DNA of 32,000 nt, taken from contig NC_009954.1 of assembly GCF_000018305.1 (NCBI RefSeq), forward strand, positions 180,001 to 212,000, in the 5' to 3' direction. The position numbers and the translations under genes were made by a program. Of this stretch, positions 1 to 10,634 are shown piece by piece; the stretch's first letter is position 1, and the number at the start of each line of letters is the position of its first letter. This DNA comes from Caldivirga maquilingensis IC-167. GTDB lineage: Archaea; Thermoproteota; Thermoprotei; Thermoproteales; Thermocladiaceae. Under the pieces are notes generated by a model. It did no database searches, was not told the origin of the DNA, and saw nothing but the letters and a program-made list of their open reading frames with translations.

Positions 1-472
1 TTCCCACTATTGTTAGGTCATAATAGTTCCAGTCATTGACATTAAGAACACTTGAGACCATGCATTAAACAAGTGTACGTTAGGTAGAAGAGACTAAGTG
101 ATTAGTATGGTGCCATGTTCTTCCGACCAAATAAATATGTTTCACTCATATTCATTACCTTCAATTTATTAATGGTCCACTTTCAAATAGACCATGGGGG
201 TAAATACGTGATGCATGGCTTTTAAAAGGCCTTAACCTTAATGTAGAAGTAGGTGTAAACATGCCAAGCAGTGAAGGGCATTGTAGCTGAACCATTAAAC
301 CAATAGAAGCCTCTCCTAAGACATATCATTGATAATAATGAAATATTTGGAAAGTTTCCAAGTAACTTCATTAATACTCTAAGGATGACTAGGTTTGGAT
401 AACTTAAGAGTCTTTTCTTGATGCTTAAGTACGAATTTCTTAATTCATAACATTAGTGATCACGTAGTAATG

Positions 473-481
473 CTTAATATT
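473..481 (+). promoter_or_regulatory. TATA-like box for the dehydratase gene
   Basis: CTTAATATT is centred about 25 nt upstream of the ATG at 502. Several other genes in this window show the same spacing, which fits leaderless crenarchaeal transcripts. Confidence 0.4.
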
Positions 482-486
482 GGGGT

Positions 487-1698
487 TTGCAGACTCTAGT
501 TATGGTTACTATTAAGGATGTGGAAGTCTACCCGGTTAGTGACTTAGCGACTGCTAAGGCAAGTCCATGGGCCTCTGTCTCAATAATAGTTAAGGTTACT
601 ACATCTGATGGGCAGGTAGGTTACGGTGAAGCCGTTCCAACACTTAGGGTTAATCAGGTTATTAAGGCTATTGAGGAGGTCAGAAGACTGGTTATTGGTA
701 AGGATCCATTTAGGGTTAGTTATATATTCAGGGAGTGGTATAAGCATGACTTCTATATTAGTAGATCCTTTGAGTCAGCCACGGCATATAGTTCAGTGGA
801 TATTGCTCTCCACGACATATTAGGCAAATACTACGGTGCCCCTGTGTATCAGTTAATTGGTGGTTTAATTAACGATAAGGTGAAGGTTTACGCAAACGGC
901 TGGTATTCGGACTGTGTTACACCTGAGGATTTCGCTAAGAGGGCTAAGGAGGTTGTTTCAATGGGTTTTAAGGCCATGAAGTTCGATCCCTTCGGCCCAT
1001 ACTTTGACTCAATGGATAAGGCTGGCTTAGAGGAGGCTGTGGAGAGGGTTAGGGCTGTTAGGGAGGCTGTGGGTAAGGATGTTGATATCCTCATTGAGGT
1101 TCACGGTAGGTTCAACGTCAATACCGCTGTGCAGATGGTTAGGGCAATGGAGCCCTTTGAACCATTATTCATTGAGGAACCTATTCACCCTGACTTAAAC
1201 ATGGAGGGGCTTAGTAAGGTTAAGAACGCCACAGGGGTTAGGATAGCCACTGGTGAGAGGATTATAAGTATTGAGGAGGCCCTCCAGTTAATTGAAAGGG
1301 GGCTTGTGGACGTTCTTCAACCAGACATAACCAATGCCCTAGGCTTCACAGGGATGAGTAGGATTAGGGCATTAACCGAGGCCTATGGTATAGAGCTAGC
1401 GCCGCATAATGCCTTTGGCCCCATTCAACATGCCGCCACTCTTCAATTTGATGCAAGCAGCTTTAACATACTGATTCAGGAGAGTTTCTACGAGTTTTGG
1501 CCTCAATGGAAGCGTGACATAATTGGTGATGCCTTTAAGCTTAATGAAGGCTACCATACAGTGCCCAGTAAGCCAGGCCTTGGTGTTACTGTTAATGAGA
1601 GGTTACTGGATGAGTTGAGATTCACGGGTATGGAACCATTCCATGAGGAGGAGCCCGTGTGGGTGATTAAGGGTACGTGGAGGAGGTACGGCTCCTAA
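487..1698 (+). CDS. Enolase-superfamily sugar-acid dehydratase, D-gluconate/D-galactonate dehydratase-like
   Basis: 403-aa ORF. The track start is TTG at 487, but the first ATG at 502 (MVTIKDVEVYPV) sits 25 nt downstream of a TATA-like box and is the likelier start. Mandelate racemase/muconate lactonizing family signatures are present: GYGEAVPTLRV, YANGWY..CVTPEDF, KFDPFGP, DILIEVHGRF, FIEEP, ATGER, and C-terminal EEPVWVIKGTWRRYG. From memory it is near-collinear with the Sulfolobus solfataricus gluconate dehydratase of the branched Entner-Doudoroff pathway. This was not verified by search. Confidence 0.85.
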   Translation: MQTLVMVTIKDVEVYPVSDLATAKASPWASVSIIVKVTTSDGQVGYGEAVPTLRVNQVIKAIEEVRRLVIGKDPFRVSYIFREWYKHDFYISRSFESATAYSSVDIALHDILGKYYGAPVYQLIGGLINDKVKVYANGWYSDCVTPEDFAKRAKEVVSMGFKAMKFDPFGPYFDSMDKAGLEEAVERVRAVREAVGKDVDILIEVHGRFNVNTAVQMVRAMEPFEPLFIEEPIHPDLNMEGLSKVKNATGVRIATGERIISIEEALQLIERGLVDVLQPDITNALGFTGMSRIRALTEAYGIELAPHNAFGPIQHAATLQFDASSFNILIQESFYEFWPQWKRDIIGDAFKLNEGYHTVPSKPGLGVTVNERLLDELRFTGMEPFHEEEPVWVIKGTWRRYGS

Positions 1699-1703
1699 TT
1701 AGG

Positions 1704-2711
1704 CTACGTGGCCTGCTTACTGGTTCTCCTCCAGGTTGATGGATAAACACCCCTAGGCATAATAACCCTAGTTGGCTTAGCTACAATCCCCCTATTCATG
1801 TTAAGTATCTCATTAGTTGAGGCAGTGGATTCAGCCAACGCCACTAACTCACCCTTAAGCGTCATTAAGGCTACTAATTGACCACTCCTAATACCCTCCT
1901 CAACCTTAGCAACCCCCGGTGCCGCCAGTGATGCACCGTGGGCTATTGCATCCACTGCGGAGTCCCTAATGTAGATTCTAGGTAGGTGAATCACCATTTC
2001 CTCAACAGGCCTAATTAACCTCCTAAGCAGTGATTCATCACCGTAATCCCTCCAAAGTGAGTAAGCTTCCCTTAACGTATTCAAGTTAACTGTATTCTCC
2101 TCCCTGAAGCAACCGACCCTAGTCCTCCTTAACTCCCTCATGCTTGCACCAACACCTAAAACCTCACCAATATCGTAGCATAGTTTCCTAATGTAAGTCC
2201 CTGACTCAACATCAGCCTTAAACAAAACGTACCTACCGTCGAATTCCATTATATCCAGGCTATAAACCGTCTTAACCCTAATCCTCCTCTTAACAGCACT
2301 CTTGAGGGGTGGGCGTTGATATATTTTACCCGTGAACTCCCTGAAGACAGCCTTAACCCTCTCCTGATCCACAGTAGAGTGAAGGAGCATAACACCCACG
2401 TACTCCTTATCAACATTACTTATACCTTGCAATACCTTAGTTGAATCACCCAGAGCTATTGGGAGAACCCCAGAAACCCCTGGATCAAGTGTACCAGAGT
2501 GCCCAGCCTTACTGATATTAAGCAGCTTCTTAACCCATGCAACAACCTCACTACTAGTCGGCCCCCTTGGTTTATCAAGGATTATGAAACCGTAGTTAAT
2601 GTACTCCTCAATCCTTCTTTCATAAGGATTAACACCATACCTTGGGTCAGTACCCTCATCCACCTTAACCTTAATGATCCTTTCACCACTACAGTTAAGT
2701 ACATTAAACAT
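1704..2711 (-). CDS. cbf5: Cbf5, the pseudouridine synthase subunit of the H/ACA RNP (TruB family with PUA domain)
   Basis: 335-aa ORF. It carries the TruB motif GHSGTLDPGVSGVLP with the catalytic Asp, the Cbf5-type N-terminus (DPRYGVNPYERRIEEYINYGFIILDKP), and a C-terminal PUA-like segment (IRDSAVDAIAHGASLAAPGV). TATA-like TTTTATAAAA lies at 2741-2750. Confidence 0.9.
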   Translation of the reverse strand: MFNVLNCSGERIIKVKVDEGTDPRYGVNPYERRIEEYINYGFIILDKPRGPTSSEVVAWVKKLLNISKAGHSGTLDPGVSGVLPIALGDSTKVLQGISNVDKEYVGVMLLHSTVDQERVKAVFREFTGKIYQRPPLKSAVKRRIRVKTVYSLDIMEFDGRYVLFKADVESGTYIRKLCYDIGEVLGVGASMRELRRTRVGCFREENTVNLNTLREAYSLWRDYGDESLLRRLIRPVEEMVIHLPRIYIRDSAVDAIAHGASLAAPGVAKVEEGIRSGQLVALMTLKGELVALAESTASTNEILNMNRGIVAKPTRVIMPRGVYPSTWRRTSKQAT

Positions 2712-3400
2712 AAACCACAGTCTCCTTCCCTTTGAAGGATTTTTATAAAAGTTAGGGGTTCAAAGGAGACTTCCCTACCTTAAAAAAAGAAACATCATGC
2801 CCCTTTCATAATAGACGTTTTTAAATCATCTGAGCAAACTTCTTTAATCACACTCCTTCCCTCAATGAATCCCCCTGGTTTACGAGTGAGTGCCTATTCC
2901 CTGACCTCCTCGCACTAGTGGGTTAGTTTGAGGTAAATTTGTGGATGAAAAACTTAATTAGTTTATACGCATACTGGCGAAAACCATAGCCCTGAGTCTC
3001 CATGACATGGGAAGTGAGGTTAATGAGGTTACTCCCGTGGAGAGATAGAGGTAATGGACTTTAGACTTAGCCCGAGGCTGAACCGGGCAAAGGCTTATGA
3101 TGTTACCAAAAACCAATGAACCACCCAAAGGGAAATCCCACCCAAAGAGGTGCTATGTATGTTATCACTTTGACTAGTTAAGAAATGTCCTTAACTTAGA
3201 TTTATAAATATTACTTTATAATCTTTGTAATTTATTACAAATTATAAATCTTATTTATGATAAAAACAAATAAAACATTATAACAGAAAATATCATTATA
3301 TATAAGGCACAAAACAAGAACTACTAACTAATCGTCACATCACAGAACAAGGAATCTAAAACCACAAATCAATGTAACCAACATACAGCAACGCTCCATA

Positions 3401-3477
3401 AGAGCCGTAGTTTAGCCTGAAAGGATGCTTGCTTGGCATGCGGGAGATCCCGGGTTCAAGTCCCGGCCAGGTTACCA
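3401..3477 (+). tRNA. tRNA-Ala(GGC)-like element, probably a decayed copy or pseudogene
   Basis: Hand fold: U8 at 3408; D arm GUUU/AGCCUGAAA/GGAU; anticodon arm CUUGC-UUGGCAU-GCGGG with anticodon GGC at 3435-3437; variable loop AGAUC; a perfect T arm CCGGG-UUCAAGU-CCCGG (3450-3466); then CCAGGUU-A-CCA (3467-3477). A14, G15:C48, A21, U33, purine 37 and G53-U54-U55-C56 are all in place. Against function: the 7 nt before U8 (AGAGCCG) pair with the 3' strand at only 3 of 7 positions, the D stem has three G.U pairs, the anticodon stem has two, and G18G19 reads GA. Confidence 0.45.
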
Positions 3478-3543
3478 AACCTCTTATGTAATTAAATCCG
3501 TAATAATCTAAATCTCAGAAGTGGTCTAGAAGTTCTATGATTT

Positions 3544-4227
3544 TTAATTTATTATTTTTATTAACTGAATTTTACCTTTTATCATACATTTATCAATATT
3601 TTTATCTTTAATATTAACATCATAATTTTTAATTAAAAGGGATAAATCGTACCTTTCTTCCTCCTCGTTATAGGAAATATCTAAATCAGGCATATTTCTT
3701 ATTGAGATCAATCCTTTTACGAAATTCTCATCCTTAGTTATGTACATAGCATTGTTACGAGATGATATTATGAAATAAAGTAAATCTCTACCTATACCCA
3801 ACTTATGAATTAAGGTCTTTCTCTCTTTCCTAGGGATCTTATGCCTTATTCTATTATAAATATTTGAAGCAAGTTCTATATCAGACCAGCTTACATTAAT
3901 GTAGCCAAAGCCAATATTCATAAAATCATCCCTTATTCTGTCAATGAAAGACTCAACATCATTATTGCTGATTTTTTGTAATTCAGTTATTGGTAATTTT
4001 ATCTCAATTATTTTATCAATAATTTTATTTAAAAATTCATATGCAATTAAATTAATAATGCATATTTCACTAATTTTCGCTCTACGTAAAATATCAAGTA
4101 TATAACTAGCAAAATTATTTATTACATTTCCCTCTGATATTATATATTTATTTAATAAATTATTAACAATGAAGTCAATTATTAAGCTAGTATCTAAGAT
4201 GTATCTACAGCGTGATTCCCCATTCAT
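3544..4227 (-). CDS. PIN-domain (VapC-like) putative ribonuclease with a ~55-aa C-terminal extension
   Basis: 227-aa ORF in extremely AT-rich DNA. PIN layout read by eye: RYILDTSLIIDF (Asp12), LIAYEFLNK (Glu64), INVSWSDIELASNIY (the usual 'l.fd...a..a' helix), and GIGRDLLYFIISSRNNAMYITKDENF (Asp148, Asp166, the classic D..IAA.A....T.D..F end). The ATG at 4227 lies 23 nt inside the upstream gene. Confidence 0.6.
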   Translation of the reverse strand: MNGESRCRYILDTSLIIDFIVNNLLNKYIISEGNVINNFASYILDILRRAKISEICIINLIAYEFLNKIIDKIIEIKLPITELQKISNNDVESFIDRIRDDFMNIGFGYINVSWSDIELASNIYNRIRHKIPRKERKTLIHKLGIGRDLLYFIISSRNNAMYITKDENFVKGLISIRNMPDLDISYNEEEERYDLSLLIKNYDVNIKDKNIDKCMIKGKIQLIKIIN

Positions 4228-4903
4228 AGAGTTTCACATATAGGCTACATAGTTTAAGTATTATTTTTAAGCCGTCCTCAGTGGCTAATTCATGTGATTG
4301 TAGTAGTTCCAGGGCTTCTTTGTACTTGTTGTTGAGTACCAGGAGTGATGATACCATGAATGCTAATGCATCACTAACTCTACCCCTGAGTAGGTAGTCC
4401 CAGTAGTCACCTATTAGTAATAACGCGATGGAGTTATTCTCGTTTAGATTACCATTAGCATAGGCCTTGCATGCTACGTTTCTTATTACCCATGGGGTTA
4501 ACTTAAATATCATCTTCACCCTCTTAATGAGCTCCTCATAATCCTCCGCTTCATCTGGGTTTAATTTATCGATGTAGCTCGGTAGTTCACTTGAAATTAA
4601 TCCCCTATCAATTAGGAATTTGAAAATACTGTAGAGTTGTTTAGCTGTGTTAATAAGTGCTTTTATGTAAGTTTCATAATTGCGATCCTTCATGGTGTAT
4701 GCACTGGCGAGATACTCAATGTCAGTACTAAGTGAGTTAATAAATTCCTCAGCATACTTAATGCATTCTTCATTACTGCATTCTCCAAGGTTTTTTAATC
4801 CATTAATAATATTATTAGTGGATATTTTGAGAGTTTTGATTAATAATTCATTAATATCTGGTTTATCCTTAAGTATTATAATTGAAGTTCCATCAACACT
4901 CAT
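4205..4903 (-). CDS. Hypothetical, predicted all-helical protein; first gene of the PIN operon
   Basis: 232-aa ORF with no motif I recognise: no HTH, RHH or AbrB-like N-terminus, no Walker motif, no HEPN Rx4-6H. It overlaps the PIN gene by 23 nt. A TATA box sits 28 nt upstream of its ATG. Confidence 0.55.
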   Translation of the reverse strand: MSVDGTSIIILKDKPDINELLIKTLKISTNNIINGLKNLGECSNEECIKYAEEFINSLSTDIEYLASAYTMKDRNYETYIKALINTAKQLYSIFKFLIDRGLISSELPSYIDKLNPDEAEDYEELIKRVKMIFKLTPWVIRNVACKAYANGNLNENNSIALLLIGDYWDYLLRGRVSDALAFMVSSLLVLNNKYKEALELLQSHELATEDGLKIILKLCSLYVKLYEWGITL

Positions 4904-4927
4904 ACATGCAGTTAAAAGTTAATACAC

Positions 4928-4935
4928 TATTTAAA
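4928..4935 (-). promoter_or_regulatory. TATA box of the 232-aa/PIN operon
   Basis: On the minus strand TTTAAATA is centred about 28 nt upstream of the ATG at 4903, preceded by an A-rich BRE-like CAAAA. The element (TATTTAAAT) is nearly symmetric and could also fire rightward. Confidence 0.45.
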
Positions 4936-5271
4936 TTTTGCCCAACAGGCGGCTGGGCCTTCAATCCAATCACCTTGATCCCTCCATGGGACTCGGGGTA
5001 TGCAGAATATTTGCACCTCACTTTTAAACTACCCAAACCTAAAGGGGCGAGACTTGCCGTTTATTTTTTGTCAATAGCTTTACATGGATTTAAACAGTGC
5101 CTTAAGTATAATGGGGAAGGCTGATGGAAAGTAATAACAATAATGAAGAAGCCATCAATGTCTCATGATTAAGCATCACCAATAAGAGGCGTAACCTCCA
5201 AGACCTTAGGGAAACTGCTAATTCAGGATTAGGAAGAGGTTAGTACTTACCGGTGGGTTTTAAGTAATCAT

Positions 5272-5586
5272 TCACTTAGTTACCTTAACTGTAGGTACCA
5301 TGAATAGCTTGGGTTGAACACCCTTCTTCATAATGTCAACGAGCCCAGCTGCCTCAATGGCCTTGGTCACCTCCTCATCTGAAGCACCCTTACTTATCTC
5401 AACTCTGTACTCTGTTGGTTCGAGGTGTTTAACATTGGTTCTCCTCCTCTTAACACCAGTTAGGTTCTTGGGTCCAGTAACAATGACGAATCTCTCATCC
5501 ACTATATCAACTACAACGCACATTTTCCCTGCCTCCTTACCCGCCAGCTTAACGCATACTCTCCCAACATCAAAAACCTTAGGCAT
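5272..5586 (-). CDS. rpl14e: 50S ribosomal protein L14e (eL14, KOW motif)
   Basis: 104-aa ORF. The region VGRVCVKLAGKEAGKMCVVVDIVDERFVIVTGPKNLTGVKRRRTNVKHLEPT follows the archaeal L14e pattern as I recall it from Sulfolobus. Confidence 0.9.
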   Translation of the reverse strand: MPKVFDVGRVCVKLAGKEAGKMCVVVDIVDERFVIVTGPKNLTGVKRRRTNVKHLEPTEYRVEISKGASDEEVTKAIEAAGLVDIMKKGVQPKLFMVPTVKVTK

Positions 5587-5720
5587 GATTAAGCCCTAGA
5601 GACAGGCCTTAAAATGCTTTATGGTATTTAAACCACTTAAGTTAACCTTAATCCCCGCTGGTTAAGGCGCAGTATTGGATCAAGTATAGTGAACCAATGA
5701 ATACCGCTGATCCCCTTCAT

Positions 5721-6500
5721 TTAACGGCATTTAGTCAAAGTATCTGTTAGCGTGAGGACGTCCTTTGTTCTTCTTATTATATATGCCTTACATTTAATGG
5801 CCTCATAGGGGCTGGAGTTAACTGGAGTATACACGCCGCCTGGGTCGTAGAGAACCCCCACTATACCGTACATTAATGCTCCAACGAAATCCTCCTGCAG
5901 ATTATCACCCACGTGCGCAACTACGTCAGGCACCCTATCACCGATCAGGGAGTTTATGAGTGTTTCAAATATTATTGGGTGTGGTTTTGGGTAACCCACC
6001 TCATCTGAGAAGACTGCGTAATCTATGAATCTCCATAAGCCAAACCTAGTTAAGAGTGCCCTAGATACTCTACCGGGCCAGAATATGACGTTTGAAACTA
6101 TGCCCACTAACCAATCCTCCTCCTTAAGGATGCTGAACACCTCCTCAACACCCTCAATGACTTTAATGTTCTGTGAATTAACCACGGTGTCCGCTATAAC
6201 GTTTTGAACATCATTAACAAGCCTATTTGAGAACGGTATACCATATCTCTGCCCAATCCTCTTAACCAACCTCCTAGTGTTCTCGGCGGGTGGGGTGTAT
6301 AGTAGGTTCATGATCCTGTTAACCCTAACCTCCCTCTCCATTAACCTATAGTAATCAGTAACCACGCTTGAATCCACAGAGTAACCCACCTCCCTATAGT
6401 ACTTACTTATCGCCTCCCCAATCTCCTTAATCAACGCATCCCCATACTCAAGCACCGTCTGATACACATCAAATGTTATCACCCTTGTTTCCTCAGCCAC
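5721..6500 (-). CDS. HAD-superfamily hydrolase (haloacid dehalogenase-like)
   Basis: 259-aa ORF. Motif I is ITFDVYQTVL (D-x-Y-x-T variant, as in 2-haloacid dehalogenase-type HADs). Motif IV is HVGDNLQEDFVGA. A cap-domain-sized insert lies between them. Confidence 0.7.
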   Translation of the reverse strand: MAEETRVITFDVYQTVLEYGDALIKEIGEAISKYYREVGYSVDSSVVTDYYRLMEREVRVNRIMNLLYTPPAENTRRLVKRIGQRYGIPFSNRLVNDVQNVIADTVVNSQNIKVIEGVEEVFSILKEEDWLVGIVSNVIFWPGRVSRALLTRFGLWRFIDYAVFSDEVGYPKPHPIIFETLINSLIGDRVPDVVAHVGDNLQEDFVGALMYGIVGVLYDPGGVYTPVNSSPYEAIKCKAYIIRRTKDVLTLTDTLTKCR

Positions 6501-6523
6501 AGTTAACCCTCAATGGGTAGTTT

Positions 6524-7747
6524 TTAAATTATCCATAAGGAAGGCCTATTAAACACATTAACTAAACCCTCAAGGCCTATTCTAGCAGTGGGCTTATGAA
6601 GGTGCCTAACCTCAGCCTCCCTTGGCTCCTCCAGGGTAAACTCACTGGTGTAGTTCATTAGCCTAGGTAACCCGGTAATTAATCCGCATTTAGGGCATTT
6701 AAGTAACCCAACCCTACCTGTGGATTCAAGGTTACTACCACACCTTGGGCATCTTGGATTCTTAACAATATTATTAAGCATTAATGCAACACCACCCTCC
6801 ATGTATAAGTCTAGACTATTCACTCCTGGTTTAAATCCACCGTAGGCTATTAGGTAAGTGGCCTTATCAATGCTCTTAAACCCATAGTGCCTATATGAGA
6901 AGACATGTGTTGAATTAACCCTGATCTCAATGTTACCACCCTGCACTAGCCTCACTTCATTTACTGAACCCTCAACGTAACCAGTGGTGTATGGTTTATT
7001 CATGATGCTGTTAAGATGATGGCCAGTGGCTTGGTTTGTTAAGTAGATTAACCACCTTGGCTCAACATCCACTTCATTAATAAGCATTGATGCGAAGTGA
7101 ATAATGTGGTATGGTGAATCACCCCTAATCCCAAATATCACTGGGTCGTTTCCATGAGGCTGTATTAAAACATAGTCACCGCTCACGTTCTCGAAGGTTA
7201 ATGGAGTTGTTGAATCATTCAGCTTCTTAACAAGATCAATGGGTATGCTCGGCTTTGGGGTTGATTCACTGTAGGCCAGTAGCTCTAGGGTTGAGTCTTG
7301 GCTTAAGTCAGCCATTACTGAGGCTAAGGCTCCAATAACCCCTCTACCACCCCTGTAAATTACACCTAGCTTACTCATCCATTTAACCGCTGCATTAAGG
7401 GGAATTACATCACTTAAGGCCTTCCAATATATCCAATGCTCATTATTACTTATTGAAACCACTATGCCTGGGCTAGTTTTACCAATCTTATGTGAGTACG
7501 CATCCACAGCCCACTCAGCTAGCTCTAATGCTTCCCTTGGATCATCAACATTAAGGCCTACTGAAACCGCAGCGTTCCCCCTAGTCTTAAAGGGTACGTT
7601 TGGGTTAAGCCTAATTAACCGGGGGTATGTGATTATTCTCCATTCACCCTTAGTTTTAAGGAACTCCTTAAGCATATTATACATTACATACGTTGTGCAT
7701 CCCTTATCATATGTGTCAGTGTCATCAATCCCAACCCAAGTAATCAT
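6524..7747 (-). CDS. tiaS: tRNA(Ile2) 2-agmatinylcytidine synthetase TiaS
   Basis: 407-aa ORF. The N-terminus MITWVGIDDTDTYDKGCTTYV matches the TiaS kinase-like domain signature (GIDDTDS..G.CTTY). The C-terminal zinc ribbon is CPRCGSNLESTGRVGLLKCPKCG. The family is archaea-specific. Confidence 0.85.
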   Translation of the reverse strand: MITWVGIDDTDTYDKGCTTYVMYNMLKEFLKTKGEWRIITYPRLIRLNPNVPFKTRGNAAVSVGLNVDDPREALELAEWAVDAYSHKIGKTSPGIVVSISNNEHWIYWKALSDVIPLNAAVKWMSKLGVIYRGGRGVIGALASVMADLSQDSTLELLAYSESTPKPSIPIDLVKKLNDSTTPLTFENVSGDYVLIQPHGNDPVIFGIRGDSPYHIIHFASMLINEVDVEPRWLIYLTNQATGHHLNSIMNKPYTTGYVEGSVNEVRLVQGGNIEIRVNSTHVFSYRHYGFKSIDKATYLIAYGGFKPGVNSLDLYMEGGVALMLNNIVKNPRCPRCGSNLESTGRVGLLKCPKCGLITGLPRLMNYTSEFTLEEPREAEVRHLHKPTARIGLEGLVNVFNRPSLWII

Positions 7748-7829
7748 TAATCAACTACCAGTGGTTCATTTAGGGTACTTAATTATTAACTTAACGTGGC
7801 TAATGAATTAAATGCGCGTTAATGCAGGA

Positions 7830-10634
7830 TTATTGAACTGGTATTACTGCCCTTTGATCACTGCTTATCCTTGATGGCCACCAATTATACTTACCCGCTA
7901 GAACCATTATTGCAGGCATTACAGCTGGCCTTATTAGGAATGCGTCCATTAAGACACTTAAACCAACCGTGAACCCTATTTCCCTAAGTATATATAGTTG
8001 CGAAACCATGAGGCTCATGAAGGCTATCGCCAACACTAAGGCTGCCCCAGTAACTATTGGGCCAGTATTCTCAATAGCAGTCAATATTGCCTCCGGGTCA
8101 CTCTTACCCTTAATAACCTCCTCCCTAACCCTCGTTACTATGAATATGTCGTAATCAGTGCCGACGCTTGTAAGGAGCGCGAAGAGTATTATCGGCAGTA
8201 GCCAGTAGGTCTCAACTCCAAGTAGCTTATAGAATATTAATTGACTTACTGCAAGTGACCAGGAGATGCTAATCATTACCGTGGCCAGTAGCCTTAAGGG
8301 AACCACCAGGCTCCTTAAGGCTAGGGAGAGCAGTAGTATGTTTAATGCTATTATCAGTATACTTATCTTATAGTAGAATTGATCCTCAAAAACCTTAACG
8401 AAGTAGTACTTATTTGCAGCATCACCACCAACAATTACCTTAACACCGTATTCACTAGCTACCTGGTTCGCTAGGCTTGTGAGCCTCACGTAAACTGGTA
8501 TCAACTTGTCTGAGAGGGCATTGTAGCTTGTGGTTACCTTAAGTATGGCGATTGATGATGAATTATAAGCCAAGTTAACGCTCATGGTGAAGTTGAGGGA
8601 ACTAATGGCGTTTTCCAATGATTGTAAGGCTTCAGCATTATTAGGTTCAAGGATCACGTATTGCGTTGATTTAACGTAATTAGGGAAGTAATGCTGCAGG
8701 ATCCTGTATGCGTAAACTGACTTAACGTTAGGCATCAGTAGGAGGGGGTTCGAGGTAACTGGGTTCCTAATAATGAAGAGAACCGAGAGGACAGTAGGTA
8801 TTAGGGCAATTGCAATGATTAACCAAGGTCTCCTCAGTGAGAACCTGGTTAATTTAATAATTACCCTTGTGCTTAATTCCCTCGTAGATGATTTAAGGCC
8901 CATTGGCCATAGAATCCTATCATTCATTAACGTTATTAATGATGGTAAAACCACTGTTGTTGCAAGTATGACGAAGGCGACCGTAACTATGTATGATAAG
9001 CCAATTACTTGAATATACTGGTAATTGGAGACTACGAATGAGCCTAAGCCAGCTGCTACAACGCTACCTGAGGTTAGTATGGTTGGTATCGTGAAACGCA
9101 TTATAGTCTCTAAGGCCTGTGACGTATTGAAACCTTTTCTCCTCTCCTCTAGGTATCTTCCAATAACAAGTAGGCTGTAGTCAACCCCAATGCCGAAAAC
9201 TATGGGTGATATCATGTAGACTGTTAGGTAGTATACCGTTAACCCCATTTTACCAAGGAAGTAAACGACCCCAAGTACCGCACCGTAGGATAGGATGAGC
9301 ATTATTAATATGATTATAGGCGCCACTAATGTACCTAATACGAAGAGTAGCATTAATAGTACTGAGGCGCCACTGACTTCATCAATCATCGGCACATCCT
9401 TCTCTATTATTTCCGATAATTGACTTAGAACTATGTTGGTTGAGAATGGGTAAACATAATCATAATTAGTGAATAAGTTATTAATCTCTAAATCATTAGT
9501 GGAGTTAACTATAACCAAGGCATATCCATTTGAGTATAGTGAACCATTGGTAATGTTATTTGCATAAGAGTAGGCTGGCTTCTTGTATATTGATGAGACC
9601 ACGAAGCTTAATGATGAGTTAAGCTCACTAATTGTCGTGTTTACCTGAGACTCATTGGTGCACGCTAATTGAATTAGGTATGGTTTAAGCAGTGGTGGTG
9701 TTGAGTTAATGAACCATGAAGCCACTAACTTAGCGGTAAGGGTTCTTGGGGGATTAGGACCCAGGGCAATCATGGGTAAAGCCAGTGGATTACTCTTAGT
9801 TAAATTCCTCAATATTGGTACATAGGTATTATTTATCTTAATCAGCGTTGAGTAGTATGATGATGAGAGAGACTCCTTAATCAAGCTTATGTTTAAGCCG
9901 TAAATAGGCAGGCTACCCACTGAGTCGTTCAATGACTTAATGAAGTATAGTAAGTATGGCTTAAGCCAACTTGAGTAATTACCATTATTAAGTAGGCTTT
10001 GCCCGGTCTCATTTATAACCTGCCATACTGAGTATGAGTAATCCACGGTGGATAAGTTTGTGAAGAAGGCCTTCATGAATAATGTGAAGAAGCCGCTGAA
10101 TTCCCTTATTGTTAATGTGTAATTATTAAGTGTGGAGTAGTATTCATTACTAATACTATACAGTTCACTGCATAATAATGATTCATTAGCGTAAATTCCT
10201 CGTATAATACCGGTGTAGTTGCTTAAATACTCCTTCACTGTCTCATTGGTAATGGCGTAGTAACGGTTGATAACTTTATCATAAATACTGTTTAAATCAT
10301 AGTAAGTTAAGTTAAGAGACCTTAATTCATCATCAATAGTGCTGAGTACGTAACGTGAATTATTAATATTACCTACGTAAACCGGTATCACAACTAAGCC
10401 TACTTGGTTCCCTAAATACCTATTAACTATACTGGAGGCTAATGACGCCTCCGTCCAAGGTGGAAGCACCTTACTATCACTGTAAACCAGTATCTTAAAT
10501 GCGGATGGAGCATAGGGAGCTAGAGCTAGTATGAGCGTAATCCAAGCCGTCACAATCACTACGCTTAATGCAATTCTATGAGTATTGAAACACCAGCGCT
10601 TGTAATGCATCGCTAATAAATAGTTTTCCCTCAT
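7830..10634 (-). CDS. MMPL/RND-superfamily membrane transporter with a large N-glycosylation-sequon-rich ectodomain
   Basis: 934-aa ORF with two transmembrane bundles. Each contains the MMPL/SSD-type motif (GVDYSLLVIGRYLEERRKG and GTDYDIFIVTRVREEV). A soluble region of about 350 aa follows TM1 and contains about twenty N-x-S/T sequons. Confidence 0.8.
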   Translation of the reverse strand: MRENYLLAMHYKRWCFNTHRIALSVVIVTAWITLILALAPYAPSAFKILVYSDSKVLPPWTEASLASSIVNRYLGNQVGLVVIPVYVGNINNSRYVLSTIDDELRSLNLTYYDLNSIYDKVINRYYAITNETVKEYLSNYTGIIRGIYANESLLCSELYSISNEYYSTLNNYTLTIREFSGFFTLFMKAFFTNLSTVDYSYSVWQVINETGQSLLNNGNYSSWLKPYLLYFIKSLNDSVGSLPIYGLNISLIKESLSSSYYSTLIKINNTYVPILRNLTKSNPLALPMIALGPNPPRTLTAKLVASWFINSTPPLLKPYLIQLACTNESQVNTTISELNSSLSFVVSSIYKKPAYSYANNITNGSLYSNGYALVIVNSTNDLEINNLFTNYDYVYPFSTNIVLSQLSEIIEKDVPMIDEVSGASVLLMLLFVLGTLVAPIIILIMLILSYGAVLGVVYFLGKMGLTVYYLTVYMISPIVFGIGVDYSLLVIGRYLEERRKGFNTSQALETIMRFTIPTILTSGSVVAAGLGSFVVSNYQYIQVIGLSYIVTVAFVILATTVVLPSLITLMNDRILWPMGLKSSTRELSTRVIIKLTRFSLRRPWLIIAIALIPTVLSVLFIIRNPVTSNPLLLMPNVKSVYAYRILQHYFPNYVKSTQYVILEPNNAEALQSLENAISSLNFTMSVNLAYNSSSIAILKVTTSYNALSDKLIPVYVRLTSLANQVASEYGVKVIVGGDAANKYYFVKVFEDQFYYKISILIIALNILLLSLALRSLVVPLRLLATVMISISWSLAVSQLIFYKLLGVETYWLLPIILFALLTSVGTDYDIFIVTRVREEVIKGKSDPEAILTAIENTGPIVTGAALVLAIAFMSLMVSQLYILREIGFTVGLSVLMDAFLIRPAVMPAIMVLAGKYNWWPSRISSDQRAVIPVQ

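Follow-up and report, generated by a model that had tools for sequence, protein, structure and literature searches.

An insertion between rpl14e and cbf5 of Caldivirga maquilingensis carries a rare gene pair encoding a probable PIN-like nuclease and a large, cysteine-containing partner

Introduction

A ~2.5-kb piece of foreign DNA separates the housekeeping genes rpl14e and cbf5 of the hyperthermophilic archaeon Caldivirga maquilingensis IC-167, within a stretch of 32,000 nucleotides (nt) of contig NC_009954.1 (positions 180,001 to 212,000, forward strand) that was analysed at its full length and is called the window here. The insertion carries two overlapping genes, of which the upstream one (orf232) encodes a protein of 232 amino acids (aa) and the downstream one (orf227) a 227-aa protein that is probably a divergent member of the PIN domain superfamily. 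Our overall reading, to which we assign a probability of roughly 0.55, is that this inserted, mobile pair of PIN-like nuclease and partner acts as a toxin-antitoxin-like, addiction or defence module. An earlier inspection of the same DNA by its letters alone (the sequence-only reading) had singled out the region as the likely place of such a module.

A foreign insertion at the rpl14e-cbf5 junction

For comparison with the window, the corresponding locus of other genomes was fetched via Cbf5. In five genomes rpl14e lies directly upstream of cbf5 with a spacer of 45-85 nt, so that the site is empty: Caldivirga sp. UBA161 (L001, with a Cbf5 that is 96% identical), Caldivirga sp. MU80 (L002), Caldivirga RSNS23 (L003), a Thermoproteaceae metagenome-assembled genome (MAG; L004) and a Thermofilales MAG (L079). 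Because rpl14e abuts cbf5 in these five relatives, positions 2746-5254 of the window are an insertion, and the comparison shows that the lineage of C. maquilingensis acquired ~2.5 kb of foreign DNA at the ancestral junction of rpl14e and cbf5. In a blastn comparison, the UBA161 locus aligned window 451-2745 with L001 10263-7968 and window 5258-10629 with L001 7972-2602, with breakpoints at window 2745 and 5258 and a 5-nt overlap in L001. The features of the junction are as follows.

1704-2711, minus strand: cbf5, one flank of the insertion
2737-2745: left-hand member, GGATTTTTA, of an imperfect direct repeat of 9 nt; it falls within the cbf5 TATA region (alignment to the UBA161 empty site)
2746-5254: insertion of ~2.5 kb, absent from five relatives (blastn and junction alignment)
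5255-5263: right copy of the imperfect direct repeat, GGGTTTTAA, ending 8 nt before the rpl14e stop codon (5272-5274)
5272-5586, minus strand: rpl14e, the other flank of the insertion

When both junctions were aligned to the empty site, the direct repeat proved to be a duplicated part of the cbf5 TATA region. The sequence-only reading had proposed that an island at 3180-4940 was acquired horizontally; the comparison of the cbf5-rpl14e interval bears out the acquisition, and moves the bounds, since the foreign segment spans 2746-5254 and includes a 430-bp non-coding piece of normal GC content.

The landing site of the insertion was the cbf5 TATA region itself (window 2737-2756 and 5255-5270). 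On the cbf5 strand a usable TATA box, TTTTATAAAAAT, has been remade in part from letters of the insert, and a degraded TATA copy has been left beside the rpl14e stop codon.

The adjacency of rpl14e and cbf5 is not universal in the family. In Thermocladium sp. (L005 1-1780), cbf5 is not preceded by rpl14e and two unrelated minus-strand genes (155 and 217 aa) stand there instead, an arrangement that is uninformative on the insertion.

A gene pair kept together in unrelated surroundings

The pair and its promoter occupy the following positions.

3544-4227, minus strand: orf227, probable divergent PIN-like nuclease, 227 aa (ABW01005.1 / WP_012185225.1, 100% identical)
4205-4903, minus strand: orf232, conserved upstream partner, 232 aa (ABW01006.1 / WP_012185226.1)
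4205-4227, minus strand: 23-nt overlap of the two genes, from the coordinates of the open reading frames (ORFs)
4928-4935, minus strand: TATA box TTTAAATA, read from the sequence, ending 24 nt upstream of the orf232 ATG

These coordinates (4903-4205 and 4227-3544) and the overlap reproduce those first proposed. Because the TATA box ends 24 nt before the orf232 ATG, the spacing fits the predicted leaderless bicistronic transcript, in agreement with the earlier view that the operon has a promoter of its own.

The pair has very few relatives. In a word-indexed search of 5.8 billion proteins, orf227 and orf232 each matched only themselves, and an exhaustive phmmer search of 1.84 billion representatives with orf227 returned a single relative, P0003 (207 aa, 28% identity, E 4e-5); a profile built from orf227 and P0003 added one further relative, P0004. 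P0003 and P0004 are each immediately preceded by a homologue of orf232 (238 or 239 aa, 26-29% identity), with a 4-nt overlap (L083/L086) or an 8-nt gap (L084) between the genes, as against the 23-nt overlap in the window. The pairing is therefore kept in three of the three lineages found, in each of which the two genes are co-oriented and tightly coupled with the orf232-type gene upstream. These lineages are C. maquilingensis, one organism with 41% GC and one with 47.5% GC; three contigs (L083, L086 and L088) are 99% identical and count as one organism. Three lineages is a lower bound, the exhaustive search having used orf227 and not orf232 as its query.

A comparison of the two metagenome contigs found conservation in the two genes only, with unrelated flanks. 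It shows a conserved cassette that moves between genomes as a unit, and it sustains both the proposed association of the 232-aa protein with PIN-like genes and the proposal that the two genes form a real module. No further members were found in IMG/VR (by protein, profile or DNA pattern), in JGI metagenomes (by profile), or in GenBank phages and PLSDB plasmids (by DNA and tblastn). The sole DNA match in IMG/VR was an unrelated tRNA-Met and was set aside. The gene-pair family is very rare, with three lineages among billions of proteins.

The downstream gene encodes a probable PIN-like nuclease

The family of orf227 has its acidic residues in the D...E...D...D order of the PIN domain superfamily (PF01850). 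Residues D12, E64, D148 and D166, the quartet that had been picked out in the single sequence, are present and do not vary in the two further lineages, the only ones found, among sequences that are only 27-44% identical to one another. The neighbours of these residues are likewise invariant (T13, G146-R147 and T164), and give the motifs LDT, EF, GRD and T.D.

Profile comparisons point in the same direction. Among 24,736 Pfam models, PF01850 was the top match of P0003 (E 0.018, 16.1 bits, covering model positions 1-114 of 120), and it also matched P0004 weakly (E 0.15, 13.1 bits). An E value of 0.018 over 24,736 models corresponds to a per-model P of ~7e-7, and this is the value to consider, PIN having been hypothesised beforehand. 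The family was also aligned by hhalign with four PIN sequences (VapC/FitB/PAE2754), each of which matches Pfam PIN with an E value of 1e-13 to 4e-21 and one of which, Shigella VapC, is identical to 3TND. This alignment was colinear over residues 6-179 (P 0.008), and paired D12 with D7, E64 with E42, D148 with D98, and T164-D166 with T114-N116 in Shigella VapC numbering. In addition, in a model predicted by AlphaFold2 (AF2) from a three-sequence alignment, strands and helices alternate in an order that fits a PIN core, with three long strands after them at the C-terminus, and UniRef labels orf227 as PIN domain-containing.

On this evidence orf227 is very likely a PIN protein, and it is probably a divergent PIN-like, metal-dependent nuclease and probably a ribonuclease (RNase). 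The PIN identity put forward by the sequence-only reading thus stands as probable, on the invariant acidic residues, the sub-threshold Pfam matches and the colinear hhalign alignment, and falls short of the curated Pfam threshold. The protein has inserts between its catalytic elements, and the extra C-terminal stretch of ~55 aa that had been noted as a tail is indeed present. The last 45-55 residues of orf227 are conserved in the homologues and are predicted to form beta strands; the extension is a domain and not low-complexity junk.

The partner has four invariant cysteines

An alignment of the orf232 family contains 37 invariant columns, which include C42, C47, C145 and C219 and the motif GEC..EECI. 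The four cysteines suggest a metal site or disulfides in the predicted protein. Searches of orf232 and its homologues against Pfam, NCBIfam, PADLOC, PHROGs and PDB sequences gave no match common to the three partners, antitoxin families included, in line with the earlier statement that the protein lacks a recognisable antitoxin fold. Matches of orf232 to ANAPC3/TPR (E 0.003) and DUF7198 (E 0.005) were rejected as noise that its two homologues do not share. By size and by detectable domain, the predicted partner is not a VapB-type antitoxin.

One copy lies near a defence locus

In the second lineage, the MAG contig JAGDXB010000038.1 (L086) carries the pair ~1.1 kb from homologues of HmaB, HmaC and HmaA (locus L086 2267-11296). 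Anti-phage activity of Hma has been shown by experiment, and the Hma region is described as a hotspot for the insertion of further pairs of defence genes (PMC11232893). The genes that follow the pair on this contig are listed here.

216-aa Zn-ribbon protein without a family match, between the pair and the Hma locus
DUF1156 methylase (PADLOC HmaB, 1.5e-56)
DUF499 ATPase (HmaC, 4.7e-40)
164-aa ORF, between the DUF499 ATPase and the helicase in gene order
SNF2/NOV_C helicase (HmaA, 1e-24)

The contig of the third lineage (L084) is too short to show a neighbourhood.

The remainder of the insert

Besides the two genes, the insert comprises a 430-bp non-coding segment, a 220-bp AT-rich spacer, a tRNA-like piece and ~350 bp upstream of the pair.

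2750-3180, no strand: non-coding segment of 430 bp with normal GC content (0.42)
3181-3400, no strand: very AT-rich spacer of 220 bp (GC 0.24), with no ORF and no RNA-family match
3397-3488, plus strand: perfect 8-nt inverted repeat, CATAAGAG (3397-3404) and CTCTTATG (3481-3488), bracketing the tRNA-like element
3403-3474, plus strand: decayed tRNA-like element (Rfam tRNA) with GGC in the anticodon loop

The foreign composition is most marked in the PIN-like gene. With a GC content of 0.247, and of 0.228 at third codon positions (GC3), orf227 ranks lowest among the 684-bp windows of the 32 kb (mean 0.426, standard deviation 0.046), and orf232 is less extreme (GC 0.355); hand counts of 7/60, 11/60, 10/60 and 33/60 G+C made in the sequence-only reading were exact. 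No integrase ORF was found in the insert, as had been reported, and no transposase ORF or any ORF longer than 80 aa besides the pair; nor does it contain a replication or capsid gene. A transposon or miniature inverted-repeat transposable element was rejected on the lack of terminal inverted repeats. Paralogues of the insert were found neither in the window nor in the fetched related loci, and an Rfam scan of the insert gave nothing beyond the tRNA-like match.

The segment at 2750-3180 has no ORF longer than 56 aa and no Rfam match at E<=10, and could be the remains of a gene from the donor element. A structured RNA at 2850-3160 was considered and rejected, with unremarkable fold z-scores of -1.25 and -0.24 and no Rfam match. 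Upstream of the orf232 promoter and divergent from it, a terminator-like hairpin, GGCGAGACTTGCC, is followed by a T-run (5046-5070, plus strand), and an unconvincing 80-aa ORF with a TTG start (4882-5124, plus strand) overlaps this hairpin region.

The tRNA-like element is real yet defective. It scores 28.4 bits, under the Rfam tRNA gathering score of 29. The T-arm is intact and so is the 3' acceptor strand, but the 5' acceptor strand is broken and pairs at 3 of 7 positions; the D stem and the anticodon stem persist through G-U pairs alone, and ARAGORN makes no tRNA call there. The 8-nt inverted repeat forms an outer stem in the predicted fold, with a z-score of only -0.9. A functional, intron-containing or split tRNA was rejected, as there is no candidate 5' exon upstream, no TATA box at the expected distance upstream, and only G-U pairs to keep these stems together. 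No such element was found next to the other two copies of the gene pair, and because of this absence it is not part of the module; a role as RNA decoy or antitoxin was rejected on the same ground. It is no marker of the integration target either, given that relatives have no tRNA at the empty site. The decayed element described earlier exists, and it is neither a conserved feature of the module nor a sign of where the DNA entered.

Two independent Logan assemblies of C. maquilingensis reads (L081 and L082; SRR253096 and SRR9435970) both stop exactly at window 3439, midway through the element. This shared end suggests that the 3' half of the element is repeated elsewhere in the genome, as an attachment (att) core or a parent tRNA would be.

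How the pair may work, and what weighs on either side

In the mechanism that we propose, the foreign piece of ~2.5 kb inserted at rpl14e-cbf5 brought in a compact cassette as its sole intact genes. The downstream gene probably encodes a divergent PIN-like nuclease that retains the full acidic active site, and the orf232 product would be made from the same leaderless bicistronic mRNA. This partner would most likely bind the nuclease, and hold it inactive or otherwise control it. Such a pair would resemble type II toxin-antitoxin, addiction or defence modules in its behaviour, with a large four-cysteine protein in place of the small DNA-binding VapB, while the tRNA-like piece and the rest of the insert would be passenger debris of the donor element, outside the module. 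We infer toxicity, neutralisation and defence from the gene architecture, the patchy distribution and the single defence-island neighbourhood. A bolder version, which we consider a rather doubtful extension, would make the pair the founding example of a new and rare archaeal abortive-infection or defence module. In it, the partner would be a cysteine-based metal or redox sensor or gatekeeper that releases, upon infection or stress, a PIN-like RNase with a C-terminal beta domain, and the insert at aa 65-86 would be a surface under diversifying selection.

Several results weigh against a toxin-antitoxin-like or defence module, and they concern each of its parts. For the nuclease, the Pfam scores of P0003 and P0004 (16.1 and 13.1 bits) lie under the curated gathering score of PF01850 (23.6 bits), no other curated Pfam model reached its threshold for these two proteins, and orf227 of the window has no Pfam match at E<=10. 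NCBIfam and PHROGs scans of orf227 and its homologues likewise brought up no consistent family. The hhalign probabilities are low (3-8%), PDB sequences searched with single sequences and with profiles contained no relative, and PIN was returned neither by the orf227-family profile there nor by a Foldseek search with the weak AF2 model (pLDDT 58.7). A local hidden Markov model built from four PIN sequences, which has low power, placed only P0004 above decoys. For the partner, the protein is larger than the putative toxin, and no DNA-binding domain was detectable in it by library scans. With respect to defence, the Hma neighbourhood was seen once only, and the surroundings of the window copy are a housekeeping ribosomal/Cbf5 operon without defence genes nearby. 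PADLOC-DB v2 gave no match for the PIN-like proteins, and for the partners it gave noise only (oMTase, E 0.022, and PbeC, E 0.0022, each in one member).

Sequence variation within lineages belongs with these points. In one C. maquilingensis assembly (L081), GGG stands in place of the GGGG of the window at 4494-4497, and orf232 is frameshifted to a 138-aa product (P0002), whereas L082, the second assembly, is identical to the window over the G run. The frameshift may be a homopolymer or other sequencing error, or a real variant that lost the partner; if the truncation is real, loss of the partner is tolerated. Within the second lineage (L083 vs L086 vs L088), the partner gene has no differences in 717 nt, while the PIN-like gene (L083 1328-1951) has 10, including an in-frame 3-nt indel, and 8 of these 10 fall in codons 65-86, in the insert after the catalytic Glu helix. 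Because of the L081 truncation and these differences, the nuclease could be not strongly toxic, or it could be under relaxed or diversifying selection.

Among the other explanations, the one that survives best, although we find it unlikely, is that the pair is functional without being a toxin-antitoxin system: a two-subunit nuclease or regulator of an archaeal plasmid or virus, with a role for example in RNA processing, replication or host takeover, left behind with a fragment of a tRNA-like attachment region. The insert has a tRNA-like piece with a 3' half that seems to recur elsewhere in the genome, as is expected of att regions of integrative elements, and a large partner unlike any antitoxin and a foreign composition would suit such a source. 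However, IMG/VR viral contigs, GenBank phages and PLSDB plasmids yielded no homologue to searches by DNA, protein and profile, PHROGs gave noise only, the insert has no integrase, replication or capsid gene, and neither of the other two copies of the pair has the tRNA-like piece beside it.

In another reading, the cassette in C. maquilingensis would be a decaying, non-functional passenger whose ORFs are still open after AT drift and relaxed selection have removed its function. We regard this as quite unlikely. The GC and GC3 minimum of the window falls in orf227, which is also the sole member of its family without a Pfam PIN signal, decay is plain in the adjoining tRNA-like gene, the remainder of the insert does not code for protein, and one assembly has a frameshifted orf232. 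Yet both ORFs are full length and keep every invariant residue of their families, the acidic quartet and all four cysteines among them, neither the promoter spacing nor the gene overlap has been lost, and the agreement of L082 with the window across the homopolymer means that the frameshift may be a sequencing error.

It is improbable that orf227 does not have a PIN fold and that its D/E/D/D pattern and weak profile matches are coincidences of a low-complexity protein rich in Ile, Asn and Lys, as the missing curated-threshold match, the PDB-sequence and Foldseek searches without PIN and the low hhalign probabilities might imply, given that the acidic residues and the motifs LDT, EF, GRD and T.D are invariant at 27-44% identity, that PIN ranks first among the Pfam models for P0003 over nearly the whole model, that the N- and C-terminal hhalign alignments are colinear and reach the true catalytic residues of Shigella VapC, and that UniRef applies the same label.

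Comparison with known systems

A toxin-antitoxin-like or defence module of the kind that we favor would find its closest parallel in VapBC. Both are two-gene, co-oriented cassettes whose genes overlap or lie close together, the PIN-like one downstream, both have four acidic residues in the canonical order, and the distribution of the pair is patchy and seemingly due to horizontal transfer, with one copy beside a defence locus. Unlike VapB, which has 70-90 aa, the partner has 232-239 aa, is larger than the nuclease, contains four invariant cysteines and has no detectable AbrB, RHH, PHD or HTH domain. The PIN-like protein differs as well, with 207-227 aa, long inserts, a predicted-beta C-terminal extension and scores under the Pfam PIN threshold.

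The passenger genes of Hma regions (PMC11232893) offer a second comparison, because the L086 pair lies ~1.1 kb from hma homologues. In contrast to those passengers, the pair is not located between hma genes, has been seen in one such neighbourhood, has no PADLOC match, and in the window has no defence genes nearby. The tRNA-associated integrative elements of Crenarchaeota (SSV-type and pNOB8-type) resemble the insert in composition, which is foreign, and in a partial tRNA-like sequence, the 3' half of which is apparently duplicated elsewhere in the genome, but the insert lacks an integrase, its site has no tRNA gene in relatives, and its flanking repeat is 9 nt of the cbf5 TATA region and is unrelated to the tRNA-like piece.

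Implications

The family is tiny, with three lineages, and its function is read from the features of its genes, so the practical weight of the finding is limited. As a locus, the rpl14e-cbf5 junction provides a clean natural before-and-after case of a small foreign cassette placed between conserved housekeeping genes of a hyperthermophile, with empty sites at hand in sister species. If the proposed function is correct, orf232 and its homologues would be a new class of partner for PIN-toxin modules, one that is large, has four conserved cysteines and lacks a recognisable DNA-binding domain. In this way, the pair would provide an archaeal example in which control of a toxin may not rely on a labile, DNA-binding antitoxin.

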